DNA of 44,628 nt from a virus. The notes beneath the pieces were generated by a model that made no database searches, was not told the DNA's origin, and was given only the letters and a program-made list of their open reading frames with translations. A program made the position numbers and the translations under genes. This document shows, piece after piece, positions 4,715 to 43,656 of the stretch (positions are counted from its first letter, which is position 1; each line of letters opens with the position of its first letter). The stretch lies in UHGV virus genome UHGV-0097092, one strand, 5' to 3'.

Positions 4715-4715
4715 A

Positions 4716-7653: not shown

Positions 7654-7694
7654 AATGCATACCGACTCTGTTTTGTTCCGAGCGGTAAAATAAT

Positions 7695-7727: not shown

Positions 7728-7757
7728 ATTTTGAGCGCGTAAACGATGTAACCCGGC

Positions 7758-8441: not shown

Positions 8442-8665
8442 TCTGCAACATCCTCCAAATCAGCAACCGCGTCCATCACATCAGAACCGCGAATAACTTC
8501 AAAAGCGCGGCAGGCCATTTCAAACACCTGTTGTTCTTGCGGATGCGGTGACTCCCAATACTTAAAACCAGGTCGATGCTCGTAACCCATCATGGAATAA
8601 AAATCGCCAGCAAGTTCAATCGCGGCATCAACAAGTTCGCGATTTGTCATCGTCTGTTCTGTCAT
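8438..8665 (-). CDS. hypothetical protein (75 aa)
   Basis: ORF translationally coupled to neighbours; acidic. Confidence 0.45.
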
Positions 8666-8937: not shown

Positions 8938-9650
8938 TGGTTGCCTCCTTTGCGAAGCTGGTCGGCGAACAAACGTACACCAGACGCTTCACTGCGTAGA
9001 AACTTAACGGCATAATCAAAACCACCTCGTTCTGCGTCGTCTGCTGCGTTGTCGAGGTTATCTGCGTACATCTCTACCCCCTGCGCACGCACTTCAGCCA
9101 GGAAAGCGTCGGTGGCTGGGGTTTCAACACGGATGCTGTCGCGCAAGATGAAAAATGCATTGAGCATTCCTGTCTCTGGCACTTCATCCTGATGCTTCTC
9201 ATACGCATCAAGAGCCTTCATCATCTCAGCTCCGAATGGTTGAGGGTGCACAGACTTCAGCTCCGCATTCTCCGCCGCCAGCACCACGCGTTCGCTCTCC
9301 AGTTCTGCAATGCGCTGTTTTGCGGCATCAAGTTCAATCGATAATTTTTCCAACTGCTCTTTATGCTTCTTGTATTCCTGATATGCGTGCCAAGACTGAC
9401 CTTTGCGCACACTATCCGTGATATCAGTAATCTGTTCTGGTGTTAGCGTGGTCAGTGGCTGTGCTGGGAAAATCAGCACTTTGCCGGAATCCCAATCAAA
9501 ACCAGCGTGAATTGACTGAACCTCAACTGATGGTGTTGAACCGATGCGACCAGGCGAATGAACAACGATCGTTACATCCATATCGCGACGATGGCTGTGG
9601 TTGTTGGACAAAATACGATTCACCAACTCAGAAAATTTGGAAAATTTCAT
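8934..9650 (-). CDS. Ead/Ea22-like protein (start taken at ATG 9650)
   Basis: shares the C-terminal module and the 3' junction sequence cactggttgcctcctttgcgaagctg with 5741..6358; ATGA overlap with the upstream gene. Confidence 0.55.
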
Positions 9651-10009
9651 GCTGATTCCCTTTGCTCTTCCTGGATAATGTTGTTGCAATCTTTCACGCA
9701 CTCGTTGCAGATGAAGACGTTGTCCCCGGCAATTAACTTTTTAACGGTGTGCTGGGATTTGTTGCAGAAGCTGCAATAAAGCGTTGGACTGGTTGATACG
9801 GATGGTGCGCCAGATGTCAGCCGCGCGATGTCGTTCTTGCGACGCAATATCACACGGCTGAACTCAACCAGCTTCTCCGGGGATATATCCTCCTCCGTAG
9901 CGAGCGTTTCTAATCGTTCGAGTATGTGGAAGGCTTTTTCCTGGGTAATCCTGGGTAATTCAGCGTTACGCTCTGCCAGTTGTGCGGGCGTTAAACCTTC
10001 AGACTTCAT
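9647..10009 (-). CDS. protein with C-terminal ClpX-type C4 zinc-finger domain
   Basis: [39 protein letters not shown] closely parallels the ClpX N-terminal zinc-binding domain. Confidence 0.6.
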
Positions 10010-10316
10010 GCACTCTCCTTTCGAAATAAACGTACTGATTAATCATGCCCAGGGGCATTTCGAGTTTTTCCGCGATCTCACGGCGGGGAACGCCGCATTG
10101 ATGAAGTTGCCGCGCCAGCTCTATATCGCTCTGCCGATATTTGGCTGACTGGTGAAAGTCACCTTTCAGAATCATTCTGATCCCCAGTTCCCGCGCTTTA
10201 GTCCTGACAGCATCTCCGGTACGCCCGATCAGCCTCCCAATACTCTCGACCGTCATAGTTCCGGCGCACTGGCGGAGTATCATGATTTCTGCCCTTCCCC
10301 ATCCCCGCCAGCTCAC
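9999..10316 (-). CDS. small DNA-binding (helix-turn-helix-like) protein
   Basis: 105 aa; HTH-like segment [26 protein letters not shown]. Confidence 0.45.
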
Positions 10317-10936
10317 GCCGACATCCTCTGAGACATAAACTCCACAAAACGAACTGCATCTTCAGAAACAACGCCGCATGACTTCAGATAATTCATTGCG
10401 TCATTAGGTAGCGGATTAGTTGGTTCGGCATTTGCCAGGGATTGAGATAAACGCGTGATTAATTTGACCATTCTCCGCTGTCGGAGGTTGTATCCTTCGG
10501 CTAAAGACAGGTAACTGGAAAGGGTATTGCTTAGGCGAGCGCGAAGCTGATCCGTGCCGTGACATTCAATAGCAACATCACGTAACGCATCGACCAGTTC
10601 GCGGTAAATATGCGCTGCCATTCTGCAATCTGTGTCAGATGGCGCTTCATAAATTACCGTCAGCTCCAGTTTTTCAGCCAGGGCGTGTTCTGCTCGTGCT
10701 CCTGCGGACGCTTCCCAGCCCTTAAGCAGATAGATAGCATCAGCAGAACGCACCATTGCCAGGCAAATATCCATGTATTCACTCTGACAAAGGCCACCAG
10801 GTAACACCGCTGGATTCAGAACGATATGCCCTTCAGCCGTCAGCTCACTCGCCTTCGCATTAAACGCCGCGCGGTTGTAATCTGGATAACCAGTCATCGG
10901 ACCCGCGATGTAAATTTTCAAAACACGTTTCACCAT
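10313..10936 (-). CDS. DUF4406 / nucleoside 2-deoxyribosyltransferase-like protein
   Basis: start MVKRVLKIYIAGPMTGYPDYN; IAGPMTG motif typical of the NDT-like fold; extra C-terminal region. Confidence 0.5.
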   Translation of the reverse strand: MVKRVLKIYIAGPMTGYPDYNRAAFNAKASELTAEGHIVLNPAVLPGGLCQSEYMDICLAMVRSADAIYLLKGWEASAGARAEHALAEKLELTVIYEAPSDTDCRMAAHIYRELVDALRDVAIECHGTDQLRARLSNTLSSYLSLAEGYNLRQRRMVKLITRLSQSLANAEPTNPLPNDAMNYLKSCGVVSEDAVRFVEFMSQRMSA

Positions 10937-11091
10937 CAAAATTTCCCCAGCATCGTGACGCAAAACATAAGCACTGCAAAAAGCTCAATACCAAGCTCAA
11001 GTAGCGCCAACGCGCCGAAAAACAGCACATAAAACAGGCCGATCTCATTCACAGGTGGCTGGTGGATCGCACTTAAGGCTATAAGCATCAT
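10936..11091 (-). CDS. small hydrophobic membrane protein (51 aa), first gene of the leftward array; my own ORF call
   Basis: GGAGG upstream; MMLIALSAIHQPPVNEIGLFYVLFFGALALLELGIELFAVLMFCVTMLGKF; stop overlaps next start as TGATG. Confidence 0.35.
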   Translation of the reverse strand: MMLIALSAIHQPPVNEIGLFYVLFFGALALLELGIELFAVLMFCVTMLGKF

Positions 11092-11130
11092 GTCCTCCAA
11101 ACAGTAAACAGCGACTGATATTAATGTTTT

Positions 11131-11163
11131 ATGTTAGAAAATCAATTTTGAATATCTAACAAA
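11131..11163. promoter_or_regulatory. promoter-operator-like palindromic motif, copy B (divergent region)
   Basis: ATGTTAGAAAATCAATTTTGAATATCTAACAAA between the leftward array and the ref-like gene. Confidence 0.45.
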
Positions 11164-11209
11164 TATGATCAATCATAAAAAAATCGCTGATAAGTAAGAG
11201 GCAGCCAAC

Positions 11210-11788
11210 ATGCAGAGACAGAGTTATTGGGAGAAACAGAGACAAAAAGCCATGCAAAAACTGGCTGATCCGGAATGGCGGGAAGAGCAAAGGGCAAAAC
11301 GTCTTCAGCAGGCTCAACGCCAGCAGCAACGCGCAAGGGAAAAAGCCGCATCGCCTGAATATCGTCAAAAGAAACTTGAAAAAGTGAGGCAAAGTGAACA
11401 GCGCAGAAGAGAGAGGGCGGCGTCAGCCCTCCCCAAAAAAACGCGCCCGTCACGCGGATTAAAAGGGAGATCACTCACAGCAGAAGAGCGCCGGATACAG
11501 GACGCTATAGGCAAACTCCCCTGTATTGCCTGCCATCTTCACGGGAAGCATAGCCCTGTCGTATCTCTCCACCACATATTTGGCAGAACGGCTAAAGATG
11601 CCCATAAATACGTTCTCCCTTTGTGTAAATGGCACCACCAGCACGCAGCGCCAGCAGAGATCCGCGAACAATATCCCTGGTTGGTTCCTGTTCATGCTGA
11701 TGGAAAAATAGGCGGGAAAGCAGATTTTATACGGCACAATGCCGAAGAGATGACGCTCTATCAGACGGTGCAAGAAATGGTGAATTAA
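11210..11788 (+). CDS. ref: Ref-like HNH-type recombination enhancement protein
   Basis: basic Gln/Arg-rich N-terminal region plus C-terminal Cys/His core (LPCIACHLHG...LPLCKWHH), matching the P1 Ref architecture. Confidence 0.55.
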   Translation: MQRQSYWEKQRQKAMQKLADPEWREEQRAKRLQQAQRQQQRAREKAASPEYRQKKLEKVRQSEQRRRERAASALPKKTRPSRGLKGRSLTAEERRIQDAIGKLPCIACHLHGKHSPVVSLHHIFGRTAKDAHKYVLPLCKWHHQHAAPAEIREQYPWLVPVHADGKIGGKADFIRHNAEEMTLYQTVQEMVN

Positions 11789-11812
11789 TTTTCTAACATT
11801 TTATGTTGAGTT
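11789..11812. promoter_or_regulatory. degenerate reverse copy of the operator-like motif, copy C
   Basis: TTTTCTAACATTTTATGTTGAG immediately after the ref-like stop. Confidence 0.3.
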
Positions 11813-11916
11813 TGAAATTTACTGATTGTACATTTTGATTAGATTGGTTCACCGCTCGACGCAACGAGACAAATCCTCAAGGATTTCGTATGATTGCCAA
11901 TGTCATAGTTATGGCA

Positions 11917-11975
11917 GCGCAATACAGGTGGCTAAAAGCCCCCGTTGACTCACGGTGTTCCAACCTGTATTGCGC
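11917..11975. repeat. perfect 13-bp inverted repeat GCGCAATACAGGT / ACCTGTATTGCGC with a 33-nt spacer
   Basis: read directly; embedded in a possible 35-aa ORF (11891 onward). Confidence 0.5.
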
Positions 11976-12119
11976 CGCCACCAGACCGTGGAACAGTCTG
12001 TGACGGCTTCGAAAGCAAGGAGTCACTATGAACAATTACAAACTTTTCCCATCACTCACCGTCTACTCACGCAATAACCTGCGTTCTTTGCTCCCATCAA
12101 AACTGGAGGGAGTATCAAA

Positions 12120-12287
12120 ATGACCGTTCGCTACCTGAATTATCAAATCCAGAACATCACTGGCGGTTGCTATGACTGGTTTGTCACTCTCGGAAAAGAA
12201 GTGATTACAGGGAAACTGGATGAAGTGAAAGCTAAGGCGTTGGCTTATGCCTGTAAACAATCCATGAAAATGAAAAGAAAAAAATAA
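12120..12287 (+). CDS. small hypothetical protein (55 aa), my own ORF call
   Basis: GGAGGG 7 nt upstream of ATG; MTVRYLNYQIQNITGGCYDWFVTLGKEVITGKLDEVKAKALAYACKQSMKMKRKK. Confidence 0.35.
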   Translation: MTVRYLNYQIQNITGGCYDWFVTLGKEVITGKLDEVKAKALAYACKQSMKMKRKK

Positions 12288-12344
12288 CAATGGGAACAAT
12301 CCGCCCCACTCCGCTATAAGGTGGGGCGGCATAATTAATACTGG

Positions 12345-16184: not shown

Positions 16185-16544
16185 TCATACACCAACCAGG
16201 CTTTCAAGAGGAATGCCAAACTGGGAATGTAAACGACGAATCATAGGTAACGTTAAATTTCGTGTCCCATTTAGCACTTCGTAAACACGATTTGACTTAC
16301 CAATCGCCGGTTCCAGATCCTTCACGGTCAGCCCTTGCTGTTCCATACGGAATTTAATGGCTTCAATAGGTGATGGTGGCTCAATTGGGTAATGCTTTTT
16401 CTCGTACTCTTCAATGAGCAGGCACATTACTTCAAAGAAATCGCCTTCCGGTGTGTTCATTTCCGGTTCGTTATCGAACATCGGTTCGACCGCACGCAGT
16501 GCGGCCTCATAATCTTGTTCTGTACGGATAGGTTTAATGTTCAT
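16185..16544 (-). CDS. higA: HigA-family antitoxin (XRE-type HTH)
   Basis: C-terminal HTH IGKSNRVYEVLNGTRNLTLPMIRRLHSQFGIP; sits directly downstream of the HigB-like toxin gene. Confidence 0.65.
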   Translation of the reverse strand: MNIKPIRTEQDYEAALRAVEPMFDNEPEMNTPEGDFFEVMCLLIEEYEKKHYPIEPPSPIEAIKFRMEQQGLTVKDLEPAIGKSNRVYEVLNGTRNLTLPMIRRLHSQFGIPLESLVGV

Positions 16545-16547
16545 GAT

Positions 16548-16850
16548 TTACTCCAGTTCTATTGTATCAGCTTCAATGGCATCGTATTCCTTATGTGTTC
16601 CAATAAACTTAACGAACATCCATCCTCGCTGATAAGCAATTGCGACAATTAACCTGTAATCATTTCCCTTAATATTGAACACCACGCGCCTGTTTTTAAG
16701 GATGCTGGCTGTCCGGTACTGTTCTTTGATCTCAGCCGGATTTTTCCAGTCAGCCTTTGTTGCTTCATCAACCCATGCCTTTAATGGCTGTTCTGCATCG
16801 GGATTCTTCGCCCAGAAATCCCTTAGTGTTTTTACCGAAATTATTTTCAT
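16548..16850 (-). CDS. higB: HigB-family (RelE/ParE-fold) toxin
   Basis: start MKIISVKTL; VFNIKGNDYRLIVAIAY...FVKFIGTHKEYD pattern typical of HigB. Confidence 0.65.
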   Translation of the reverse strand: MKIISVKTLRDFWAKNPDAEQPLKAWVDEATKADWKNPAEIKEQYRTASILKNRRVVFNIKGNDYRLIVAIAYQRGWMFVKFIGTHKEYDAIEADTIELE

Positions 16851-16878
16851 CACAGATTCCTTCTCGCTGAAAGTATAG

Positions 16879-16926
16879 TAGTCCCAATATGGGACAATGT
16901 AAAGCACTTTAGTCCCATGTTGGGAT
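16879..16926. promoter_or_regulatory. two palindromic operator-like sites upstream of higB
   Basis: TAGTCCCAATATGGGACA and TAGTCCCATGTTGGGATA flanking an AT-rich promoter-like stretch. Confidence 0.45.
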
Positions 16927-22760: not shown

Positions 22761-24422
22761 TTAACCTAACTTCGCCCAGGTATCACGCAGCCCAACGGTG
22801 CGGTTAAATACCGGTTTTTCCGCCGTAGAATGGCGGCTGTCGAGGCAGAAATAACCTTCACGCTCAAACTGGAATGCTTTACCCGCTACCGCTTCTTTCA
22901 GCGACGGTTCAGCAAAGCCTTGTTTGATCACCAGCGATTCCGGGTTAATCACCGACAGGAAATCATCCGCAGCACCAGGGTTCGGCACGCTGAACAGACG
23001 GTCGTACAGACGGATTTCAACCGGCAGCGCATGTGCCGCGCTCACCCAGTGAATAACACCTTTGACTTTACGACCATCTGCCGGATCTTTGCTTAAGGTG
23101 TCGGCGTCATAAGTACAGAAGATGGTGGTGATATTGCCTTCGGCATCTTTCTCCACGCGTTCAGCCTTAATGACGTAAGCATTACGCAGACGCACTTCTT
23201 TACCCAGCACCAGACGTTTGTACTGCTTGTTAGCTTCTTCTCGGAAATCGGCGCGGTCGATCCAAATCTCACCGCTAAACGGCACCTGACGGCTACCCAT
23301 TTCCGGTTTGTTTGGATGGTTCGGCATGGTGACCATTTCGCCTTCGCCCTGGTAGTTTTCGATAACCAGTTTCACCGGATCGATAACCGCCATTGCGCGC
23401 GGCGCATTTTCGTTGAGATCTTCACGGATGCAGGATTCCAGCGACGCCATCTCAATGGTGTTGTCCTGCTTGGTCACGCCGATGCGTTTGCAGAACTCAC
23501 GAATAGAAGCCGCAGTGTAACCACGACGACGCAGACCGGAAATGGTCGGCATACGCGGGTCATCCCAGCCTTCAACGTGCTTGTCGGTCACCAGCAGGTT
23601 CAGCTTACGCTTGGACATCACAGTGTATTCCAGATTCAGGCGCGAGAATTCGTACTGGCGCGGGTGAACAGGAATGGTGATGTTGTCCAGCACCCAGTCG
23701 TACAGGCGACGGTTGTCCTGGAACTCAAGCGTACACAGAGAGTGCGTAATACCTTCCAGCGCATCGCTGATGCAGTGGGTGAAGTCGTACATCGGGTAGA
23801 TGCACCACTTGTTGCCAGTCTGGTGGTGTTCAGCAAATTTAATACGGTACAGCACCGGATCGCGCATCACGATAAACGGTGAAGCCATGTCGATTTTCGC
23901 ACGCAGGCAGGCTTTACCTTCTTCAAAACCACCGGCACGCATTTTTTCGAACAGCGCCAGGTTCTCTTCAACGCTGCGGTCGCGGTACGGGCTGTTTTTA
24001 CCCGGTTGCGTCAGGGTGCCGCGGTATTCGCGGATCTGTTCCGGCGTCAGTTCATCAACGTACGCCAGGCCTTTATTGATCAGTTCGATCGCATAGGCGT
24101 GGAGCTGATCAAAATAATCGGAGGAGTAACGGACGTTACCAGACCAGTGAAAACCTAACCACTCTACGTCGTTTTTGATCGACTCAACATACTCGATATC
24201 TTCTTTTACCGGGTTAGTGTCGTCGAAACGCAGGTTGCACTGGCCTTTATAGTCCTGGGCGATCCCGAAGTTCAGGCAGATAGATTTCGCATGGCCAATA
24301 TGCAGATAGCCATTTGGTTCCGGCGGGAAACGGGTATGTACTGTGGTGTGCTTACCACTGGCCAGATCTTCATCGATGATCTGACGAATGAAGTTAGTCG
24401 GGCGGGCTTCTGCCTCACTCAT
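22761..24422 (-). CDS. glnS: glutaminyl-tRNA synthetase, near-identical to E. coli GlnRS as recalled
   Basis: 553 aa; N-terminus [52 protein letters not shown] and VMSKR class I motifs. Confidence 0.95.
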
Positions 24423-24690
24423 TGTGGATTCCTCAAAGCGTAAACAACGTATAACAGCGTATGATCTTATAAGCCGAATAGGCTGACAACCACTAGTTGA
24501 TTAGAAATTGCTTTCTATCGTTATTTCAATAATGAGCTTTTTCATGAAGCCCACTTTTGCGCATAAGTAAATTAATGACAAATGGTGCACAATTGGCACC
24601 AAAAAGGATGTAAAAGTGCACCAAATTAGTGGTATATTGGTGCACCTTTGGTTCAAAACTTTTTAAGTTCTAAAACCAACCTGAAAGACT

Positions 24691-24978
24691 TTATTTTGCT
24701 TCCTCAGACTCCGCTAACATGAGGATAGCATGGCGGATCATATTCAATTTGCTGCGATTATGCTTTTTGCTTAACGCATCAAGTACCTGGTACTCGTATT
24801 CATTGAAGCCAACACGAATGGATTTAAAATCACGTGGGGCGTCCTTATCGAGCACTTTGTTGTCTTCTGGTTGCTCACCCGGCACCAAATCAGCTTTGCT
24901 GGCAAAAGCCTCAATTCGGCGTTCAAGATCGAGGTCTTTTACTTCGGGGGCTTTTACCGATTTACGAGGCTTAATCAC
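24691..24978 (-). CDS. ParG-like ribbon-helix-helix centromere-binding protein
   Basis: 95 aa; C-terminal RHH-like KSIRVGFNEYEYQVLDALSKKHNRSKLNMIRHAILML; downstream of and overlapping the ParA-like gene. Confidence 0.5.
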   Translation of the reverse strand: MIKPRKSVKAPEVKDLDLERRIEAFASKADLVPGEQPEDNKVLDKDAPRDFKSIRVGFNEYEYQVLDALSKKHNRSKLNMIRHAILMLAESEEAK

Positions 24979-25612
24979 TTAATAACTCCTTAACCAACAT
25001 CTGGATTTCACCTTTAGCTTTCCCGTTGTCCATCTCAACAACGCCCTTCCCTTCAGCCATACAATCGCGGTAAACCTTGCGATCGCGAATGATGGTTTTC
25101 AGCAACTTCAGTTGCGGATATTCAGCCAGGTACTCTTTGGCCTCATTGGCTTCATTCACAACCGGATTGGATGGGGCCATTGTTAAGACTGCGCACGCCT
25201 TAATGCTAGGATTAGGCATCAGATCCAAAGCCTCTTCAAAGACTTCAACAAAATGCGCCAGAGTGTCTAAATCTGGCTGAGATGGCCTGAATGGAACAAG
25301 CAAAACATCCGCCGCAGTAATACCGGTGCGCATTTCTTTGCTATCACGACCAGCGGTATCAACAACCACAAATTCATAACGCTTGTCCAGATCAAGAAGT
25401 GTTTCACGAATATTCCCAAACTTCTGGACGCAATGAATTACTGGAGAAACCTCTGCCGCATTACGGTCCGATGCCCAACGGGCAGATGTTCCTTGCTTAT
25501 CTGCATCAAGTAGAACTACGTCCTTATTTGCGCGGGCAAGCTCCGCACAAATATTTACGCTGGTGGTTGATTTGCCACAGCCACCTTTTTGGCTGGCTAC
25601 CAATATAATCAT
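24971..25612 (-). CDS. parA: small ParA/ParF-type Walker ATPase (type Ib partition)
   Basis: start MIILVASQKGGCGKSTT (deviant Walker A); about 213 aa; GAGG upstream. Confidence 0.8.
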   Translation of the reverse strand: MIILVASQKGGCGKSTTSVNICAELARANKDVVLLDADKQGTSARWASDRNAAEVSPVIHCVQKFGNIRETLLDLDKRYEFVVVDTAGRDSKEMRTGITAADVLLVPFRPSQPDLDTLAHFVEVFEEALDLMPNPSIKACAVLTMAPSNPVVNEANEAKEYLAEYPQLKLLKTIIRDRKVYRDCMAEGKGVVEMDNGKAKGEIQMLVKELLSD

Positions 25613-25645
25613 ATCCGTTCCTCGGTGTGATTTTGGTATCAAAAC

Positions 25646-25830
25646 GGTTCCAGATAAGAGCCTTTTTGATGCGGGACAGGCTCTATAATGGAGTCATGAA
25701 TGTTTGGCAAAGTATAACATCAATCAGACCAAATACACCTTATATTGCATCCTATTTAACACGAAATCAGCCCCAAATTGGAACCAGATACAAAATTGCA
25801 CCACAACAGCACCTAACTGGTTCCAGATTA
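25646..25830. repeat. three GG(T/A)(T/A)CCAGAT repeats in the region upstream of the ParA-like gene; candidate centromere/operator
   Basis: GGTTCCAGATAAG (25646), GGAACCAGATACA (25780), GGTTCCAGATTAA (25820). Confidence 0.35.
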
Positions 25831-25855
25831 ACACCAATTAGACACCATTAATGCA

Positions 25856-25880
25856 TAAAAAAGGCTGCAATTTGCAGCCT
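25856..25880 (-). terminator. rho-independent terminator downstream of parR (minus strand)
   Basis: stem ggctgca/tgcagcc, then T-run on the minus strand. Confidence 0.5.
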
Positions 25881-25899
25881 TAAACCAGCACATCTTCTG

Positions 25900-26244
25900 T
25901 CAATCAGGTAGAGAGTCAGCCAGATTGCGCGCCGACGCGCTTTTGGCAACAACTTGCTCCTTCACTGGCTCAATGGAGGCAGGGCGCTCCTCAACCGCAG
26001 CTGGTAGTTCCAGGAAGGATGCCAGCATTTTTCGGATCAGCTCCGGGTTATTGTCTTCGGTCAGCAGGGAAGCCAGTAATCCTGGAAGCCTGCTATCGAC
26101 TTCTCCCAGCGCAAGCCCTGCCAACAATGCGGTTCTTGCCATATCGCTATGTTTTTTTATCTTCTCGCTAGCCGCCTTTTCATTGGCATAAGCCTCTGGG
26201 CGAAGATAAATCATCACTTTCTTACGTTCCTGAGACATGGACAT
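25900..26244 (-). CDS. parR: ParR/StbB-like partition adaptor
   Basis: KVMIYLRPEA...RTALLAGLAL...PGLLASLL aligns with recalled R1 ParR. Confidence 0.6.
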   Translation of the reverse strand: MSMSQERKKVMIYLRPEAYANEKAASEKIKKHSDMARTALLAGLALGEVDSRLPGLLASLLTEDNNPELIRKMLASFLELPAAVEERPASIEPVKEQVVAKSASARNLADSLPD

Positions 26245-26251
26245 TACCTCG

Positions 26252-27191
26252 TTAACCGATTGCTTTCAGGCCATGAACAAGAGCAAGTTGCGGGTCATCC
26301 GCCACGAAGAAACGGTCATCACGAATATTAACTTGCTCGCGAATTGCATCTGCCACCAGCGGTGCGCCACCACCGATCACCATGACATGCGTATATCCTT
26401 TAAAGAACGCGGGTACGCAGACGGTCAATGCTTGCGGCAATGGCCTTTTTCACATCACCAACCGCTGATGGGTCATTGATATTGTCGTTCAGATAATCTT
26501 CATCGTGGCGGTTAATAATGAGCTGATCGACATTGTAATTTGACGTTTCGGTATTGGCTCTGGCAAGTGCTTGCCTTACTTCCCTGGTAACCAGAGAGAC
26601 GCCAAGATTCGAATCGCCAAAAACACGGGAAACTGCCGTCATTTGCCCGGCGACCATTGAAACATCAAGGGTAGTTCCACCCAAATCGACGATAAGAACA
26701 GAATGGGCAGGGTTCAGATTGTCGCACAGGCCAATTCCTGCCGGAATAGACTCCGGGCGTACCGTAACTTTCTTAATCGTGAACACATTGCCTTTATTCA
26801 GCGTGACGGGGCGCATAAGGCTGGCTTTCTTGCGCTCGATGTTATCGAGATTGTATTGCGCGTCGTCGTCGTAAAACTCCGCCAGAGGCAGCGTGACCAC
26901 AATTTCTACTTCCTGCGGCTCAATGCCACTTGTCAGCAGGGCATGGTGAACAGCCAGGACGTTAAGCGGGCTGTATTGCCATTCCACGTTATTCGTCGGC
27001 AGAACATCTGGCGAGATCAAATCATACGAATACTTTTCGTCGTCAATGACATAGTTAAACGGCTTGCCCGCACCAAATGTTGCTGACCATCCGCGCTTAA
27101 AGCTGTTAGGGCTGATGTGAGTGCGAGTTTCCCCGTCGTGCTCCCACAGCATTTTGATATTGGTTGAACCATCATCGATAAAAATGCGCAT
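26252..27191 (-). pseudogene. parM: ParM/StbA-like actin-type partition ATPase, interrupted by a frameshift near 26400-26420
   Basis: N-terminal 263 aa (MRIFIDDGSTNIK...DRLRTRVL) stops at 26400; the conserved C-terminus (GYTHVMVIGGGAPLVADAIREQ...) continues in another frame (26252..26440). Confidence 0.6.
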
Positions 27192-27216
27192 CTTCTTGCT
27201 CCACTTCTGAGACACA

Positions 27217-27372
27217 TTTGAGAATCAAAATGCAATTTTAAAAGAGAAGCAACCAAAAATCCACACCAAAAGAGATAAAAAAGAGTGATTATTGAGTTCA
27301 TTTTGAGAATATCTTAATCACCAAATGAATGATGGTCTGACAGTGAGATTTGTTTGAGAATGAATTGAGAAT
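27217..27372. repeat. parC-like array of TTGAGAAT repeats upstream of parM
   Basis: copies at 27217, 27302, 27353 and 27365, plus degenerate copies (27292, 27411). Confidence 0.5.
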
Positions 27373-27457
27373 ACAAAAATATTCCGAAATTTAACTCTCA
27401 GTTTGAATGACGAAATAACAAAGTGATGACAATAGGAGGATAACCAGGAGATGAAGA

Positions 27458-27742
27458 ATGAGCGCAATAGCCACCAGCGACACCCTTTGTTCTGGTCACG
27501 GAGGATTTCCGCCGCGACTGGTAGCTGAAACCGTTCCCTGGTTCACCGTTAACGGTAAGCCAGTTGTTGTAGATGGTGCCATGTTTCCCAGTCACACTGA
27601 CGGTAACAGTGCACATCCAGGGGCAGCTGTATCGACGCGAGTATGGTTTTCGATAGGTGGAAAGGGAGTTGTCTGTGTAGGCGATCCGCTTTCTTGTGGT
27701 TCTGTTATCGCCAACGGCGAGGATATTTTTCAGGTTGCATAA
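27458..27742 (+). CDS. PAAR-like spike-tip protein (T4 gp5.4-like)
   Basis: 94 aa; CSGHGG...NGKPVVVDG...VCVGDPLSCGSVIANG pattern. Confidence 0.6.
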   Translation: MSAIATSDTLCSGHGGFPPRLVAETVPWFTVNGKPVVVDGAMFPSHTDGNSAHPGAAVSTRVWFSIGGKGVVCVGDPLSCGSVIANGEDIFQVA

Positions 27743-28548
27743 TGCTTGATTCAATAGGTGAAGTTAAAGCCTTCAAAATTCTGTCAGATGCCGGTATCTC
27801 TACACCAGAATCTATAACCATAAGCCGGGCAGCTTCTGTAAAAGCCTCATCGCTCGCCAGCGCCATACAGGGAATAGTTCACGCCGATAAAACCTATCCT
27901 GATTCTGTTTCGGCCTGGACTACTCAATTGCTTGGCTTTTCTGAACAGCTCAATGAGGCCAGCAAAGCGTCTTCATCACTGGCTGATTCTCTTTCCCCAT
28001 ACACCAAGCCATCAGAGCTGTTACAGATGAAGATTGGCTGGGAATGCTACGCAAAAGGTAACGAGCTGACCCCCATACCTGCTTTCGCCCTTGTTGAGGG
28101 AATGGGGAATGTTTCCATTCCGCAATCTCTAACGGACGCATTGACGGCGCTAAAACTTGATGCTCTGAAAACCGCCATGAACGCCATTAACGCAAAAATT
28201 GAAGCTGCCGGAAGTGCTGGTGGTGGTGAAAGCAATGGTGGACAGGGTGGTGCTGGGGGCGCTCAGGCTCCAGTCATTACTCAGGATGAAATTGATGCTT
28301 TACGGGAAGCAGTGACAGCCGCCGAAGTTTTACTCTCCGAAATTAACTCAGCAAGTGAGGGTGTCGTAGCCCTTACAGGTCGCATTAAAACGTCAACCAC
28401 TCAGGCAACCAAAGGTTTAGAGAACGCTGTCGCCATCACGTTAACTGGTTCTCTACTGGATGATGCAGTAATGAGTCCGGCAATCAGTTTAATCATGCCA
28501 CAAGGCGTTATCGATGCGCTCCAAAAGAACACCAAAAAGGAACCATAG
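27742..28548 (+). CDS. hypothetical protein with Gly-rich linker, translationally coupled to the PAAR-like gene
   Basis: 268 aa starting MLDSIGEV; TAATG overlap; central GSAGGGESNGGQGGAGGAQ linker. Confidence 0.45.
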   Translation: MLDSIGEVKAFKILSDAGISTPESITISRAASVKASSLASAIQGIVHADKTYPDSVSAWTTQLLGFSEQLNEASKASSSLADSLSPYTKPSELLQMKIGWECYAKGNELTPIPAFALVEGMGNVSIPQSLTDALTALKLDALKTAMNAINAKIEAAGSAGGGESNGGQGGAGGAQAPVITQDEIDALREAVTAAEVLLSEINSASEGVVALTGRIKTSTTQATKGLENAVAITLTGSLLDDAVMSPAISLIMPQGVIDALQKNTKKEP

Positions 28549-37440: not shown

Positions 37441-37736
37441 TTGAGGGCATTTTTTACATCATTAATCCATCTGTAATGAAGGCATTCTTTACACATTTCA
37501 ATAATATCAATCAGTTAACACAGTGAATGATAATAAAAAGCGCAATAAGAATGCACGATACGCACGATATTGGTTGAGGGCGATTTTTACATAATCCTTA
37601 TATATCAATTCGTTATATAAAAACACAACTTGCTAATAACAAGATACATGCAATTAAGATGTAAAAATTGCCCTCAATTGCCGATCGTTAAGGGCAAATT
37701 CTACACCTTGAGAGGGGTGTAAAAATTGCCCTTAAG
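37441..37736. repeat. downstream iteron cluster (inc-like), mixed orientation
   Basis: TTGAGGGCATTTTTTACATC (37441), TTGAGGGCGATTTTTACAT (37574), inverted copies GATGTAAAAATTGCCCTCAA (37668) and GGTGTAAAAATTGCCCTTAAG (37716). Confidence 0.55.
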
Positions 37737-38487
37737 ACTGCTGATAGGTAAATTTTATCCTGGTAACTTTGCCGCCTTCCGTCACCTCTGAGAAGACTAT
37801 TTTCATTTTTGTATTTTTTTCAATCTCTGCTACAGCCTTCGTTAAAAAACTTCTCTTAAATTCGGCATACCGCTGATAGCTTTTTGGTAACCCATAACGC
37901 TCCCGCATCCATTCGACGCCAAGTATGGCAAAGCCGCTTCCATCATCCTTCCTGTACTGGCATAAGGACTCATAAAGCCGCATAGAATAAGGATTTGTAA
38001 GGCGAGATACTTCGGTAAAATTCAGCCTTGTGAATCTCTTATCAAGCAGAGTAAAAAACGGCATGAGATATGGATTAAGATGAATAATGTAAGTCCCGCG
38101 CCGTGGTGAATAGGCATCCTTAATCATCCAAGGATAAGACTCATAACTGTCTTCTGATTCGGTCGATTCATCAGGGTTATATATCGTAACTTTCTTCTCG
38201 CTAAGACCTGAAATGGCCTTACGAATATCCTTGCTGGCTTCAGCAGAGGGCAAATTATACATCTCTGCATATTCGTTGACCGTCAACTCACAGGCACCTG
38301 AACCAAGAACGCCATCCTTAGAAGCATAGCGAAGTCTTCCCACCACAATAAACAACAGTCGCTTTTGGTCGCGAGTCAGGTGATAAGCAGCCTCCGTGAT
38401 CTCATTGGCTTGTGCCAAACTACGACTAATAGGTGTCGCTGACTCAATCAGGCTGACGGCTTTTGCTGTTAATTCCGCTCTGTTCAT
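37732..38487 (-). CDS. repA: iteron-binding replication initiator (Rep_3 family, RepE/RepA-like)
   Basis: 251 aa from ATG 38487; NPYSMRLYESLCQYRKDDGSG and SAEASKDIR segments closely resemble recalled F RepE; flanked by iterons. Confidence 0.8.
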   Translation of the reverse strand: MNRAELTAKAVSLIESATPISRSLAQANEITEAAYHLTRDQKRLLFIVVGRLRYASKDGVLGSGACELTVNEYAEMYNLPSAEASKDIRKAISGLSEKKVTIYNPDESTESEDSYESYPWMIKDAYSPRRGTYIIHLNPYLMPFFTLLDKRFTRLNFTEVSRLTNPYSMRLYESLCQYRKDDGSGFAILGVEWMRERYGLPKSYQRYAEFKRSFLTKAVAEIEKNTKMKIVFSEVTEGGKVTRIKFTYQQS

Positions 38488-38512
38488 AACCCTGTGTGAT
38501 CCTTCAAATGGT

Positions 38513-38629
38513 GAGGGCAATTTTTACATCACTTTGAGGGCAATTACTACACCTTTTGAGGGCAAATCTTACACCTTCTGAGGGCAAATCTTACACCGAT
38601 CGTATCTAATTGAGGGCAAATCTTACACC
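38513..38629. repeat. five direct 19-20 bp iterons (TGAGGGCAAATCTTACACC-type) at about 22-bp periodicity upstream of repA
   Basis: copies at 38513, 38535, 38557, 38580 and 38610. Confidence 0.7.
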
Positions 38630-39711: not shown

Positions 39712-42700
39712 ATGGATATCAGCCCGTTAGCGACGTTGAACAATTACCGCAATGGCGAGCACTCCATATGTCAAAAGCCCTGGAAGAAAAATACAAAGCT
39801 CAAGCCGGGAAACGTTGATCGCGCTGGCAAAAGAGAGGTTATTTTGAAAGAGAATAAAGACCGTATCGCAATAATTGACGCTATACAGGGGGCGAGCACA
39901 AACGAACTTAAGGCTCTTGCTGAGATCAAAAACGCCATTCTCTCTGATAGAGGGTCTATAACTCAACTTGGTGAAAATCAAGGTAAAGTAAGTCAAAGAC
40001 TATCCCGTAGACGCATAGCAAGCGAACCCTATGTCTCTGGTGATGCCAAGAATACCCAAGCTAACCCATATATAAAACGCCTTCCGATGAAAAAAGGGAG
40101 GACGCAGGTCAACAACGGAGAAGAACGTCTCATTGTTGCAACCAACACATCAGAGCGCGTTCATTTTGCGTCATCACGCCAGTCCGCCCAAAAGTTGAAA
40201 GGTTCTGTGCCAGTAGCCGCTAATTCTGCTCCTCTTGAACCACAATCCCCCCAAAGCCAAAAAGGACCGCTTCGGGATAGTAATGGACGCTTTGTATCCC
40301 AGAAAAACAACGAAGATATAGCCAGAAAAAAAGAATGGCAGAACGCACGTAAGGCCGACGCCAAACTACAAGAAGGCTTCCTCCGGAAATTAGGCTCCAT
40401 TATAGGGGTAGATGGCAATCAGTCTTCCAGTGAAGAGTCTTTAACAGATGCCGCAGGTGTCGGCGCTGGTGGTCCGTTGTGGATGGCTGCTCGCGGCATG
40501 TACGACATTACTAAAGAGATCACAGGTAAAGCAGAATCTCTTAAAGAATGGGTAGAAAAGGGGAAAGGTGAGGCTTTATCTTCGAAAGCGACATCACCAG
40601 CTATCACTTATCCGGCGGTGGTGAATACTCAAAAAGCAACCTCTGCAACAGCATTTAATAATGCTGTTGAGACAAAATCAGCACAAGCAGTAGAAGAGCA
40701 AACAAAAATTCTTCAGACCAATGACAACAAAATAATTGATGGTCTGGAAAATGTCTCCGACGAAGTAGTTAAGCTACGCAAATCAGTATCTTCTGGGAAT
40801 AAGTTCGGCTTAAGTGATCTCTGGAGAAATCGAGCAAGCAGAAGAAATAAAATCAATATTGGCGAACAGGCTGGTAAAAATAAACGGAACAAACCGAAAA
40901 GGAAAGGTCGCAATCTGGGGAAAAAAGCCCTTTCTGTTGGTGAAAAAGCCGCTGCCGGAACCGCTGCTGCTGGAGCTGGTGCCGGAGCTGCAAAGACTGT
41001 TAAAACAAAGGTTAGTAAAGCCAAAGACATCAGCACCACAAGCGACGCATCTAAGGGTATTGCTAAAGAAACAAAAAACACAGCAAAGGCAGTTAAGCCA
41101 GCAGGTGTTGTTGCCGAAGAGGCCACAATTAAAACAGGTGAAACTGTTGCAAAGAAAAAAACCGAATCCGTAGCCCTCAAAAGTGCTGCAAAAATAGGTG
41201 TTAAATCAGCTGCTTCTACAGCTGCAAGAGCTATCCCGATCATCGGATCGCTGGCTATGGCGGGATATGACGCTATAGATGGTTACACTGATACAGATGC
41301 GCAAAAGGCAGCCTTTGGATTAAGTGACGATGATGCTGTATCCGAACAGCAAAAAACGGCTTACGCAACAGCTAATGTGCTCGATATGGGGGGCTTGGTG
41401 TCGGGCGCAACGAACTTGATAGGGAAAGGAATTTCTGCGCTAGGATTTGAAAGAGCAGGTGAAAAACTTCAGAATTTTGATACCGGAGATATTGCTCGTG
41501 GTGTTAACGGCGCGGTAGATATCACCAAATCTGTTTTTGGTAACCTTAAGGATACATTTTTATCCACTGACGAAAACACGAAACAAGTAAAAAAAGCTGT
41601 TGAAGACGGCACAAAAAAAACTGTCGATGCGATTCATTCTCTTGGTGAACAATTACAAGGTGGGCGTAATGGCGAGGATGGAGTTGGTGAGCACGGGTAT
41701 ACTTCTCCAACTGAATTTAGTGCACCTGCCAACAACACCATTGCAGCGGATCTGAATATTGGCGGCAGCAACGCTAAAAACCGCAATTACCGAAATAATA
41801 ATCTCGGCAATCTTGTTTTTGCCAACCAGGAAGGGGCGACGCTGGAATCGCCAAATGCAAAAGGTGAACAACGTTTTGCGCGATTTAACACACCTGAAGA
41901 AGGGATCAGGGCACTGGCAAACCAGGTTTCCAGCTATTACAACGGCACCAGTGCCGCAGCGGGATATCAGAAGTTACAGACGGTATCCAGCATCATTTCA
42001 AAATGGGCACCGCCAAATGAGAACAATACTAACCAATATATTGATAACGTCAGTAAATATCTTGGTGTATCGCCTAATGAAAAAATAGATGTCAGCAAAC
42101 CAGAAGTTATGACGCAATTAGTTCGTGCAATTGCGACGAAAGAAGGCGGAAATCCGGCAGTTAATAATGAGTTCATTAAGAACGCACTTGGAGCATTTAA
42201 CACAAACACTGGTCGATGGGAGGGACAATTCTCTGACGAAACATTGGCGCGGATTAATAAAATTCAGAAAGAAAATGGTGGTCAGCTAATTGCCCGCGAT
42301 TCGCAATATAGTGTTGGTCGCAAGGTAAAATATGCTAATGGAAAATCTCCAGCTCAACCAGTTTTGAATGCCGTTCCGACAGCAACACAACAGCCAATTG
42401 AGGTTGCACAACATGCCCAGGCAGTCAAAAAGCCACAAAAAACAGGTAACCAACCACAACCGATTAATCCAGAGAACGCTGATGTTAATACCGGCTCTCC
42501 ATCGAGTTTGCTTGAGCGGTTAATCACAATAAATGAAAGCGGAATCAGTGGTGCAAGTAATTTATTTGGCGGCGCGGCTACCAGCCTTGCTGGAACAAGT
42601 CTGGACCTGGTAAAGGATTTTGCGTTAGCTACTTCGTTTGGTTCTATATCTTCGCTTTCCGAAAAAGCGAAAGGAATGGATCAGGCTCTTACTGAAAAGA

Positions 42701-43656
42701 TATCCAGCTTAACCGGTAAATCTTTTGGATTTAAAAAAGCTTCTCAAGTGGCTGATATCGCAACAGCCATACAACAAAAACGCACTGTTAATCACGATAC
42801 AGAAATCATTGATCTACTTCCGGGAGATCAAGTATCCCCTTCTACTCCGAAAACTCCACAGCAGGAGCAGGCTCTGGCAATCAACCAGGCTATGGCGGGC
42901 TTTTCGTCTGCAGCGCCAGCACCGAAAACCCCACAGCAGGAGCAGGCTCTGGCAATCAACCAGGCTATGGCGGGAGCTGCGCCAGTAGTTACCTCTGGAA
43001 AACGAACTATCACGGCACCAAGTGATGTGCAGATTTATGACAACGGCTACAAGGTGGTTACAGGTGAGGATAAGAGCTTCTTTGGTTCGCTATTTGATTC
43101 CACGGTGTCAGGGCTTAAACAGACAGGAACCGCAGTAATTCCTGCCGTTGGCGATAACCTTTCACGACTTGTTGGGGGGATTGATAGTACAGGGATATTG
43201 AACGATCTTGTAATGCAGTCTACTGGGCAGAATAGTGCGATTGCGCGAGCTATTAGCCCATTAACAAGAAATGTTGGAGACTGGTTGAATGGGGGGATTC
43301 AACAAACCGCTAATAGCATTAGGGGAATAGCAACTGGTGCCAATAACGCCATATTTGGCTCTGCTTCAGCTGTGCAAGAACCTTTTCTTGCTATGCCGCC
43401 ACAACTCCCTACTGTAACCGATCTCGCACGAAGCGGAATAAGACAACCATTAACTACTGACACTATAAATAACGATCCTGCTATGTTGAAGGCGCTGGAT
43501 AACATCTGCTCTATCCTGAACGATCTGCTGAATGTGAACAAGAACAATACAAAAGGCGATCCGGATAATGTTGTCAAAACATCGCAGCCGCAGCCGCGAC
43601 CACGTGCGAGCACAACTATTAATGACCAGTCGCTGGATGCTCTGCTTGAGGATTAA
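39712..43656 (+). CDS. putative tape-measure / structural injection protein (P1 Sit-like); start uncertain (TTG 39844 has the better RBS)
   Basis: 1314 aa; Lys/Ala-rich low-complexity regions, internal tandem repeat, Gly-rich segments; sits next to baseplate genes. Confidence 0.45.
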   Translation: MDISPLATLNNYRNGEHSICQKPWKKNTKLKPGNVDRAGKREVILKENKDRIAIIDAIQGASTNELKALAEIKNAILSDRGSITQLGENQGKVSQRLSRRRIASEPYVSGDAKNTQANPYIKRLPMKKGRTQVNNGEERLIVATNTSERVHFASSRQSAQKLKGSVPVAANSAPLEPQSPQSQKGPLRDSNGRFVSQKNNEDIARKKEWQNARKADAKLQEGFLRKLGSIIGVDGNQSSSEESLTDAAGVGAGGPLWMAARGMYDITKEITGKAESLKEWVEKGKGEALSSKATSPAITYPAVVNTQKATSATAFNNAVETKSAQAVEEQTKILQTNDNKIIDGLENVSDEVVKLRKSVSSGNKFGLSDLWRNRASRRNKINIGEQAGKNKRNKPKRKGRNLGKKALSVGEKAAAGTAAAGAGAGAAKTVKTKVSKAKDISTTSDASKGIAKETKNTAKAVKPAGVVAEEATIKTGETVAKKKTESVALKSAAKIGVKSAASTAARAIPIIGSLAMAGYDAIDGYTDTDAQKAAFGLSDDDAVSEQQKTAYATANVLDMGGLVSGATNLIGKGISALGFERAGEKLQNFDTGDIARGVNGAVDITKSVFGNLKDTFLSTDENTKQVKKAVEDGTKKTVDAIHSLGEQLQGGRNGEDGVGEHGYTSPTEFSAPANNTIAADLNIGGSNAKNRNYRNNNLGNLVFANQEGATLESPNAKGEQRFARFNTPEEGIRALANQVSSYYNGTSAAAGYQKLQTVSSIISKWAPPNENNTNQYIDNVSKYLGVSPNEKIDVSKPEVMTQLVRAIATKEGGNPAVNNEFIKNALGAFNTNTGRWEGQFSDETLARINKIQKENGGQLIARDSQYSVGRKVKYANGKSPAQPVLNAVPTATQQPIEVAQHAQAVKKPQKTGNQPQPINPENADVNTGSPSSLLERLITINESGISGASNLFGGAATSLAGTSLDLVKDFALATSFGSISSLSEKAKGMDQALTEKISSLTGKSFGFKKASQVADIATAIQQKRTVNHDTEIIDLLPGDQVSPSTPKTPQQEQALAINQAMAGFSSAAPAPKTPQQEQALAINQAMAGAAPVVTSGKRTITAPSDVQIYDNGYKVVTGEDKSFFGSLFDSTVSGLKQTGTAVIPAVGDNLSRLVGGIDSTGILNDLVMQSTGQNSAIARAISPLTRNVGDWLNGGIQQTANSIRGIATGANNAIFGSASAVQEPFLAMPPQLPTVTDLARSGIRQPLTTDTINNDPAMLKALDNICSILNDLLNVNKNNTKGDPDNVVKTSQPQPRPRASTTINDQSLDALLED
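42847..42974. repeat. two tandem copies of a 75-bp unit (25 aa, PKTPQQEQALAINQAMAG...) inside the Sit-like gene
   Basis: near-identical units starting 42847 and 42922. Confidence 0.6.

Follow-up and report, generated by a model that had tools for sequence, protein, structure and literature searches.

The double partition locus analyzed in this work is a conserved and already annotated feature of D6-like phage-plasmids, in which a type II ParMRC module and a type Ib ParA-based module follow each other in tandem as a plasmid-maintenance locus. We consider it quite probable that, in the copy described here, a recent and private deletion in parM is being tolerated through the redundancy of the two modules, and that this lesion does not represent a stage in the replacement of one system by the other. 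The window (i.e. the whole 44.6-kb stretch of DNA that was analyzed) corresponds to the metagenome contig ERZ1745005 NODE_439 of a D6-like phage-plasmid, assembled at a k-mer coverage of about 4x (4.05 in the contig name), and it also carries phage tail, capsid, RepB and higBA genes. A 30.6-kb block of the window aligns at 99.47% identity, and the DNA of the partition region is 95.7% identical to that of phage D6 and 99.4% identical to that of E. coli plasmid CP069886. Judged by its sequence, the window is a member of the D6-like (P1-related) phage-plasmids.

All the genes of the double locus lie on the minus strand, in the order ParMRC module, terminator and type Ib module, with a gap of 287 nt between the parR stop and the parA start (Table 1). 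Gene order, orientation and the neighbors of the locus (the upfC/PAAR gene and glnS) are shared with orf58-orf61 of Escherichia phage D6 (MF356679 / NC_050154) and with D6-like plasmid prophages such as pYU39_89 and CP069886; the sole difference of the window is a 17-nt deletion in parM. Both modules, in the same order and with a ParM of 318 aa, were found in every relative examined, comprising D6, more than 110 PLSDB plasmids and several divergent loci, including those in which the ribbon-helix-helix (RHH) protein of the type Ib module is only 74-76% identical, and the parM match spans exactly 957 nt in 56 of 60 sampled plasmids. According to the original prediction, one of the two segregation systems might have been replacing the other step by step. 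Since all relatives, divergent ones included, keep both modules and the lesion is private to the window, this interpretation finds no support. The GenBank records of D6 already label orf58 and orf59 as StbA/StbB-type partition proteins and assign a 'possible ParA partitioning function' to orf60, and 'cop, parA, stbB and parM' have been listed among D6-like genes (PMC6799933). The observation of two adjacent partition systems is thus accurate, but ordinary for this family.

Table 1. Features of the double partition locus in the window
Feature	Position	Strand	Basis or remarks
parC-like centromere/operator of the type II module	27208..27376	-	phased repeats; predicted ParR binding
parM 5' part, 263 codons	26400..27191	-	StbA_N and C-domain profile positions 2-104 of 159
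Junction of the 17-nt deletion	26402..26406		alignment with CP069886 and D6
parM 3' remnant, out of frame	26252..26440	-	carries FKGYTHVMVIGGGA..., up to the natural stop
parR/stbB, 112-aa adaptor, intact	25900..26238	-	PF10784 (3.5e-11); pB171 ParR 2jd3 (1e-6)
Intrinsic terminator, end of the parM-parR operon	25861..25881	-	9-bp stem followed by T run
Upstream region of the type Ib operon, candidate operator/centromere	25643..25850	-	degenerate TGGNNY repeats; putative function
Type Ib ParA/ParF-like Walker ATPase, 213 aa, intact	24971..25612 (ORF open to 25642)	-	Pfam, NCBIfam and PDB matches
Candidate centromere-binding protein, 95 aa	24691..24978	-	profile and fold matches
Downstream array, candidate second type Ib centromere	24583..24660		TGGTGCAC/GTGCACCA-type sites; putative function

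The assignments from which the prediction had started, namely a type Ib module made of a ParA-like ATPase and a ParG-like RHH protein beside a type II module made of parC-like repeats and ParM- and ParR-like genes, are borne out by profile, PDB and fold matches, and all the elements lie at the positions predicted for them; their strand is the minus strand. In the type II module, parR sits directly 3' of parM, starting 13 nt past the natural parM stop, and its product is 100% identical to the ParR of CP069886 and also matches phrog_8671 'partition protein'. The candidate parC, an array of direct repeats upstream of parM, comprises nine phased 11-bp units, with core (T/A)GAG(A/T) on the plus strand (ATTCTCA on the coding strand), grouped in three clusters (27344/27355/27366; 27271/27282/27293/27304; 27208/27219), and a promoter-like site (-35 at 27317-27312, -10 at 27293-27288) overlaps the middle cluster, so that these predicted ParR sites have the promoter-overlapping position of a type II centromere. 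Six exact copies of TTGAGAAT occur in the 44.6-kb window, for an expectation of about 2.8 per whole window on both strands, and four of the six are found within 155 nt (27218-27372), on one strand and with 11-bp phasing, a grouping far tighter than chance would give. The parC cores are kept in the relatives while their flanks diverge, and one locus (L005) has exactly one 11-bp unit more. The terminator hairpin that closes the operon is invariant in all aligned relatives, and an Rfam scan of the intergenic regions returned no ncRNA match at E-values up to 1. The remaining hallmark of a type II system, a ParM with complete N- and C-terminal domains (318 aa), is present in all relatives and missing from the window.

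As had been anticipated for positions near 26400-26420, the parM reading frame is indeed broken in the window. A premature TAA at 26402-26400 leaves 263 of the 318 codons, and the C-terminus continues in another frame, in a remnant that bears the adenosine-motif region GYTHVMVIGGGA and whose last 50 residues are those of intact ParM. Relative to CP069886 and D6, the plus strand of the window lacks AAGTCGCCAATCACATC, which corresponds to the loss of GATGTGATTGGCGACTT (parM nt 790-806, codons D264 to F269) from the coding strand; the deleted allele reads ...GCGTTCTTTAAAGG... across the junction, and the intact allele ...GCGTTCTTGATGTGATTGGCGACTTTAAAGG... The exact deletion point is ambiguous (26402 to 26406) because of a 3-nt AAG microhomology, and in the sequence the deletion can be seen to be flanked by CTT/CTT microhomology inside an imperfect repeat (GCGTTCTT...GCGACTT). 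Outside the gap, the broken gene encodes the same residues as the intact CP069886 allele (263/263 and 50/50 identical), which argues for a very recent lesion, and the 17-nt deletion is the only coding indel in the 30.6 kb aligned. The truncation removes 55 C-terminal residues, among them the GGG motif by which the actin fold binds adenosine, and almost certainly inactivates ParM. Programmed frameshifting or recoding was discarded as the origin of the split, given that the relatives have a single uninterrupted 318-aa ORF and that the loss of 17 nt causes the split. The junction reads CUU UAA A, which we take to resemble the +1 site of prfB, and no Shine-Dalgarno-like stimulator is present upstream of it, so that read-through into a ParM lacking 6 residues would be at best marginal. 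An IS-mediated deletion, suggested by the presence of IS2 at parM nt 808 in another locus (L014), was likewise set aside as speculation, since neither IS sequence nor target duplication is found at the window junction.

We judge the deletion likely to be a real mutation. The original prediction had also considered a sequencing indel, and it is conceivable, if somewhat unlikely, that the missing 17 nt reflect an error of assembly or sequencing in a contig of low coverage and that parM is intact in the sample, with both systems functional as in the relatives. The coverage of 4.05 leaves room for this explanation, as does the rarity of the deleted allele, which did not turn up in over 200 other sequences: 107 PLSDB plasmids, 81 E. 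coli genomes and 17 further contigs all lack the deletion, and the exact junction gave no match in viral, genome or metagenome collections, the source contig itself being recovered only by an exact-protein look-up. The lack of secondary mutations in the broken parM is also compatible with an artefact. The deletion recurs only in a second assembly of the same strain (L022), whose differences from the window are confined to the vicinity of its own contig end, in glnS, and which for that reason may share with it both reads and assembler family. A MEGAHIT contig of the same strain (L023) in turn matches the window at 100% identity along 10.8 kb and ends exactly at the junction, at parM nt 790, where its final base is the G of the intact type and not the T found in the deleted allele, raising the possibility that the sequenced population is mixed or that the deletion is unreal. 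On the other hand, a clean loss of 17 nt, as opposed to one or two, is unusual for Illumina or de Bruijn errors, and two assemblies that differ in their contig boundaries (44.6 kb and 21.4 kb) show the identical junction, free of Ns. The idea of general indel noise was dismissed in view of the lack of any other coding indel, and a gap-closing mis-join by SPAdes was judged unlikely by reasoning: a short imperfect repeat is all that the flanks have in common, without a 10-nt near-identical overlap, and we consider it too weak for an overlap-based mis-join.

A further and improbable alternative is that the deletion is real but sub-clonal, intact and deleted plasmids being mixed, or that parM nt 790-813 constitutes a recurrent hot spot for breakage or insertion in which loss of the gene is perhaps selected. 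Consistent with this alternative are the contig ends at parM nt 790 in both L010 and L023, the insertion of IS2 at parM nt 808 in the isolate assembly GCA_002228995.1, a scaffold gap at parM nt 805-809 in L016 and a 1-nt deletion at parM nt 813 in L017, all five events falling within about 25 nt of the deletion in the window. These contigs were nonetheless retrieved by means of the 263-aa product or of a separately called 43-aa C-terminal ORF, and the clustering is strongly biased because such look-ups select for exactly that outcome. Conversely, among contigs that were not selected in this way, 17 of 17 have an intact site, and the parM match is full length in most complete plasmids.

The ATPase of the type Ib module has the defining traits of its class: it is about 200 aa long, its Walker A motif is of the deviant form (KGGCGKS), and its N-terminus bears no DNA-binding extension. 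Its Pfam matches are to CbiA/AAA_31/MipZ, it also matches phrog_164 'ParA-like partition protein', and NCBIfam ParA_partition (NF041546) is by far its best family, with a full-length match of 157.8 bits that falls below the equivalog cut-off of 180. Its best PDB matches are TP228 ParF (4dzz) and TP228 ParA (5u1g), both full length (E ~3e-18) and with the Walker motifs conserved, and the protein is 100% identical to that of CP069886.

Directly after the ATPase gene, and overlapping its end by 8 nt, lies the gene for a small protein of 95 aa, described as 'hypothetical' in RefSeq and again 100% identical to its CP069886 counterpart. In this protein, a variable N-terminal tail, in which K3 and R5 are conserved and a helix spans 16-29, precedes the RHH domain at the C-terminus (approximately residues 50-92). 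Pfam, NCBIfam and PDB phmmer searches with the protein gave no match; Pfam ParG was matched neither by it nor by any of the 93 homologues aligned with it, and phmmer did not link it to 1p94. As these sequence searches yielded no ParG, the RHH assignment was based on the homologue profile and on fold prediction. The homologue profile matches CopG, weak RHH matches were obtained for 30/94 and 23/94 homologues, and an Arc-like repressor is matched in PHROG (2.4e-4). The AF2 model has a pLDDT of 85 (above 90 for residues 50-90), and its best fold matches are RHH proteins, led by CopA, ParG, Arc and CopG, with TM scores of 0.7-0.8 over some 42 residues and E-values that are weak owing to the small size of the RHH domain; ParG 1p94 ranks fourth. 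This 'hypothetical protein' may be annotated as a candidate RHH centromere-binding partner of the ParF-like ATPase.

Putative binding sites for such a partner are found on both sides of the operon. Upstream, the degenerate TGGNNY repeats include three of the form GG(T/A)(T/A)CCAGAT, at 25646, 25780 and 25819, in a region that diverges jointly with parA and the RHH gene. Nowhere else in the window are TGGTRC sites as dense as in the downstream array (5 per 250 nt, for a mean of 0.28), which lies outside the coordinates of the original prediction and contains three GTGCAC palindromes where 0.03 are expected; in two loci without glnS (L005 and L006), an analogous GGTACC array directly follows the RHH gene. 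It seems very improbable that the ParA-like/RHH pair serves not partition but regulation or copy control ('cop' in pYU39_89), or another ParA-family positioning function, leaving ParMRC as the sole partition system and the plasmid partition-defective. In favor of such a reading, the RHH protein matches only generic repressor families (CopG, Arc, NikA), ParA scores under the NCBIfam equivalog threshold and 'cop' appears among these genes in PMC6799933. Against it stand the full-length alignments of the ATPase with ParF and TP228 ParA, its match to phrog_164 and the retention of the cassette in every relative. The operon layout, in which repeats lie on both sides of an ATPase gene and of an overlapping gene for a small RHH protein whose N-terminal tail is long and basic, also conforms to the type Ib pattern described for pB171, pSM19035 and pESBL (PMC7602700).

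Across the family, the most conserved parts of the locus are ParM (97.8-99.7% aa identity) and ParR (90-100%), and exchange between alleles affects the type Ib cassette, for which identity classes of 100%, 93%, 82-86% and 76% are distinguished. One may speculate, although we deem it unlikely as a whole, that the two adjacent systems evolve under opposite regimes, with a nearly frozen ParMRC, a type Ib cassette (upstream repeats, parA and the RHH tail) swapped among at least four discrete alleles, with sharp boundaries at the parR terminator and at the RHH stop codon, and a preferred breakage site at parM nt 790-813. If true, the swapping of type Ib cassettes would fit an escape from partition incompatibility between co-infecting relatives, and the natural parM knock-outs (the 17-nt deletion and, near its boundary, the IS2 insertion in an isolate) would indicate that the type Ib system alone suffices. 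That ParMRC is invariant and the type Ib cassette multi-allelic suggests a role of partition-mediated incompatibility in shaping the D6-like family.

In the working model put forward here, ParR would bind the 11-bp parC iterons and, because these overlap the promoter, it might also regulate its own operon, while polymerisation of ParM between ParR-parC complexes would force sister plasmids apart. In the type Ib module, the TGGTRC arrays up- and downstream of the operon would be bound by the RHH protein, whose N-terminal tail would stimulate the ParF-like ATPase, which in turn would position plasmids over the nucleoid. A 17-nt deletion between short imperfect repeats would then have removed parM codons 264-269 and shifted the frame. 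The lesion leaves ParR, parC and the entire type Ib module intact, and the plasmid would presumably depend for its segregation on the type Ib system, with support from the higBA toxin-antitoxin pair encoded elsewhere in the window. Taken by itself, the case carries little weight, inasmuch as the double locus is a known trait of D6 and related plasmids and the deletion is confined to a single strain. If confirmed in the reads, though, a natural parM-null D6-like plasmid would provide a ready-made test of redundancy in a phage-plasmid. Adjacent type II and type Ib loci are, moreover, textbook knowledge from plasmid pB171.

The intact ParM of the family matches R1 ParM over its full length (E 1e-111), with an identical GYTHVMVIGGGA motif, and the 11-bp iteron period and the location of the repeats, flanking and overlapping the promoter, are common to R1 and the window. 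The parC of R1 holds ten 11-bp repeats, of which R1 ParR needs at least two (PMC9426499); the window differs from R1 in the sequence of its iterons, in their 3+4+2 layout and in the truncation of ParM at residue 263. In the ParF-ParG-parH system of TP228, the ATPase is about the size of that of the window and aligns with it end to end, and the partner is likewise small, with a flexible N-terminal tail and a C-terminal RHH domain in the predicted model, for which ParG 1p94 is among the best fold matches. The partner encoded in the window, however, shows no relationship with ParG at the sequence level, and its candidate sites (TGGTRC sites and GTGCAC palindromes) lie on both sides of the operon.

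The coexistence of type I and type II systems in one low-copy replicon is also known from the Shigella flexneri plasmid pINV, where ParAB and StbAB are redundant and where stbAB has been naturally lost in S. sonnei (PMC6519299). In contrast with the window, the two pINV systems lie about 90 kb apart, and the type I system is of type Ia (P1-like). A further parallel is provided by the double locus of pB171, in which, as outlined in later accounts, par1 (type II) and par2 (type Ib) are adjacent (Ebersbach and Gerdes 2001, in PMC6519299, PMC7602700). Insofar as those accounts describe it, pB171 shares with the window the placement of a type II ParMR system directly beside a type Ib module made of ParA and a small centromere-binding protein on one replicon, as well as a type Ib operon with repeat arrays both upstream and downstream, and the ParR of the window is detectably related to that of pB171 (2jd3). 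The pB171 loci are reported to be served by a single shared regulatory region (PMC6519299), whereas the window, for all the adjacency of its type II and type Ib systems, has no such central regulatory or centromere region: its modules are co-directional and arranged in tandem, with a terminator between them, and each has upstream repeats of its own, unrelated in sequence to those of the other.

The window is part of a D6-like, P1-related phage-plasmid, since its par region is 95.7% identical to that of Escherichia phage D6 and is matched by more than 110 plasmids (up to 99.4%, in CP069886), which are non-mobilizable, of about 90 kb and found in Escherichia, Salmonella and Shigella, and since its remainder carries tail, baseplate and capsid phage genes, a RepB initiator and higBA. 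An exact-protein match identifies it as the ENA metagenome contig ERZ1745005 NODE_439_length_44628_cov_4.050322, and hence as a SPAdes contig with a k-mer coverage of about 4x. From position 12342 onward it is 99.5% identical to the E. coli plasmid CP069886, unlike the left quarter (1-12300), a mosaic of patchy 90-95% blocks, gaps and unmatched stretches that makes up the phage-plasmid's variable early-gene region. The copy number of a 75-bp tandem repeat also varies: CP069886 has about six extra units, and the 'transglycosylase' encoded there is 1464 aa long, against 1314 aa in the window. The higB/higA toxin-antitoxin pair and the RepB gene lie 8-11 kb to either side of the par locus; the partition genes are thus away from the replicon, whereas those of P1 are adjacent to it.

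Features of the partition locus and other elements of the window
Feature	Coordinates	Strand	Remarks
parC-like region	27208-27376	-	nine phased 11-bp units, grouped into three clusters
parC clusters	27344/55/66; 27271/82/93/304; 27208/19		
parR/stbB	25900-26238	-	112 aa; PF10784 match; related to pB171 ParR 2jd3
Intrinsic terminator	25861-25881	-	strong; invariant in relatives
Upstream repeat region	25643-25850	-	degenerate TGGNNY repeats
parA	24971-25612	-	213 aa; deviant Walker A motif KGGCGKS
RHH protein gene	24691-24978	-	95 aa; 8-nt overlap with parA
Downstream array	24583-24660		TGGTGCAC-type sites; densest such cluster in window
glnS	22761-24422	-	full-length, 553 aa
PAAR-domain gene (P1 upfC-like)	27458-27742	+	
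upfB-like gene	27742-28548	+	
higB/higA pair and RepB gene	16185-16907 and 37732-38520		
75-bp tandem repeat	42847-42974		inside ORF 39712-43656

The side-by-side placement of a type Ib and a type II partition module, as well as the ParA/RHH and ParMRC identities of their components, was upheld. All genes of the locus are on the minus strand, in the order (high to low coordinates) parC, parM, parR, terminator, upstream repeats, parA, RHH gene and downstream array. Four of the six exact copies of TTGAGAAT in the window fall within the parC-like region (2.8 are expected over the whole window, both strands), and the middle parC cluster overlaps a promoter-like -35/-10 pair. Both the 11-bp period and the repeats around a promoter recall parC of R1, where 11-bp repeats lie on either side of the promoter (PMC9426499). 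The iteron cores are kept in relatives while their flanks drift, and one divergent locus (L005) has exactly one additional 11-bp unit. The PAAR-domain and upfB-like genes are divergent from the parC region, so that the intergenic stretch 27192-27457 must hold two promoters; a plus-strand promoter-like site (27354-27383) overlaps the distal iteron cluster.

In the type Ib module, ParA can be aligned over its whole length with TP228 ParF (4dzz) and TP228 ParA (5u1g), in both cases at E 3e-18, matches phrog_164 ('ParA-like partition protein') and gives a full-length match to NCBIfam ParA_partition that is below cut-off (157.8 vs 180). The 95-aa protein itself has no sequence match in Pfam, NCBIfam or PDB. 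An exhaustive HMMER search returned 100 small homologues, and the 94 that were aligned show weak matches to NikA-like (30/94) and RHH_1 (23/94) families; their profile aligns residues 47-87 to CopG (E 0.2), and PHROGs yields an Arc-like repressor (2.4e-4). Its AlphaFold model (pLDDT 85, above 90 for residues 50-90) places a helix at residues 16-29 ahead of a strand-helix-helix segment, and the PDB folds that match it best all belong to RHH proteins (TM 0.7-0.8 across about 42 residues), ParG (1p94) ranking fourth. Taken together, these data support a predicted RHH partner whose N-terminal tail is long; they do not support placing the protein in the ParG family by sequence. In close relatives the RHH half is nearly invariant and the tail variable, except for K3, R5 and an ERRIE-FA helix. 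By analogy with the ATPase-activating N-terminal peptides of ParG and ParB (PMC9178275), the tail is likely to be the ATPase-stimulating part.

The original prediction also suggested, as one of two options beside a sequencing indel, a stepwise replacement of one partition system by another, a view that the relatives do not support. Four divergent loci (L003-L006), with RHH proteins 74-76% identical, all retain, in unchanged order, parC, a 318-aa parM, parR, parA and the RHH gene. Identity to CP069886 is 97.8-99.7% for ParM, 90-100% for ParR, 86-96% for ParA and 74-98% for the RHH protein. In PLSDB, 104 of 116 records have a parM of 95% identity or more, whereas the parA/RHH segments group into discrete classes of identity (about 100, 93, 82-86 and 76%). 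When the locus is compared with L003 in a sliding window, identity is 94-100% over parC-parM-parR, falls abruptly to 59-84% between the parR terminator and the stop codon of the RHH gene (window 24700-25899, L003 4083-5285) and recovers to 87-98% downstream. This sharp drop and the discrete classes beside a conserved parM make the type Ib module look like an exchangeable cassette, in a pattern suggestive of exchange or diversification of partition specificity. A variable type Ib module next to a conserved type II module is the opposite of the latter being phased out. Directly downstream of the cluster lies glnS, as in D6; it is a variable insertion in the family, since the divergent relatives L005 and L006 lack it (compare their positions 5286-5428) and carry a D12-class methyltransferase gene instead.

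Alignment with CP069886 and D6 confirmed the predicted break of the parM frame near 26400-26420 and traced it to a single 17-nt deletion. The lost coding-strand sequence, GATGTGATTGGCGACTT (parM nt 790-806), sits between CTT/CTT microhomology within the imperfect repeat GCGTTCTT...GCGACTT. Past the deletion, TAA is reached immediately, giving a product of 263 of 318 residues. The missing C-terminus includes GYTHVMVIGGGA, which is identical in R1 ParM and is the adenosine-binding motif of actin-fold ATPases; with this motif gone, the truncated protein has very likely lost its function. The junction reads ...GTT CTT TAA AGG... (26396-26410), that is, CUU UAA A, and if tRNA-Leu shifted by +1 from CUU to UUU, as it does at the prfB frameshift site (CUU UGA C), the frame would be restored with a 6-residue internal deletion. 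No Shine-Dalgarno-like stimulator is visible upstream, and the slip is therefore probably irrelevant.

Both parts of the broken parM encode the same residues as intact ParM of CP069886 (263/263 and 50/50), and ParR, ParA and the RHH protein are each 100% identical to their equivalents in that plasmid; hence the deletion is either recent or not real. We consider it fairly probable that it is real, whether fixed or sub-clonal. It is the only coding-sequence indel over a 30.6-kb block with 99.47% identity to CP069886, and an N-free copy of the identical junction is present in a second assembly, whose contig ends differ (ERZ28662934, SAMEA3541522, scaffold_1379). This scaffold differs from the window by 4 mismatches over 13,873 nt, confined to the part of glnS close to where the scaffold stops; both the stop and the mismatches are probably due to the resemblance of this gene to chromosomal glnS. 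A mixed population of intact and deleted plasmids would fit a MEGAHIT contig (ERZ27260227 k119_43709) that shares 100% identity with the window along 10,789 nt, where CP069886 shows 22 mismatches and 2 gaps, and that stops precisely at parM nt 790, its last base being the intact-type G. This end counts for caution, although it could be a coincidence made by the exact-product look-up. An artefact of low-coverage assembly would accord with the coverage of about 4x and with the two deletion-bearing assemblies possibly sharing reads; the clean indel record and the second assembly speak for a real event.

Among sequences matching the junction region, the 17-nt loss occurs in 0 of 107 PLSDB plasmids and 0 of 81 complete E. 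coli genomes; the top-ranked matches in both all span 108 nt instead of 91, with no ungapped full-length match. The exact junction was not found in viral, genome and metagenome collections, the site is intact in 17 further contigs, and the parM match is exactly 957 nt in 56 of 60 sampled plasmids. Other lesions comprise an IS2 insertion at parM nt 808 in the isolate assembly GCA_002228995.1 (NLMT01000167.1; L014 1-148), where the right end of IS2 abuts that nucleotide; a metagenome scaffold (L016, ~368-377) in which 10 Ns replace nt 805-809; several 1-nt parM deletions, which may be sequencing errors; three PLSDB records with parM length off by 1-2 nt; and a truncated parM in MK356557. In CP042632, a single PLSDB record, the parA/RHH segment is 1 nt shorter and no gene is annotated there. 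Given these sporadic lesions in both modules, par-gene decay is occasional and not directional. Another contig (L010) ends, like the MEGAHIT contig, at parM nt 790, and the breaks within 25 nt of the deletion (IS2, N gap, contig ends) may reflect a hot spot or look-up bias.

The original observation is thus accurate and its mechanism conventional. The dual-module architecture is already known for the D6 family, the closest description, in which GenBank lists orf58/59 as StbA/StbB-type partition proteins and orf60 as a possible ParA; pYU39_89 is likewise listed with 'cop, parA, stbB and parM' (PMC6799933). What is new is only the private deletion in parM, which may be sub-clonal or an artefact. 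The double par locus of pB171 offers a functional likeness, but one regulatory region serves both of its loci (PMC6519299), whereas the modules of the window are in tandem, with a terminator between them, and each has repeats of its own. Type Ib operons with repeat arrays on both sides occur in pB171, pSM19035 and pESBL (PMC7602700), and in Shigella pINV the type I and type II partition systems are redundant (PMC6519299).
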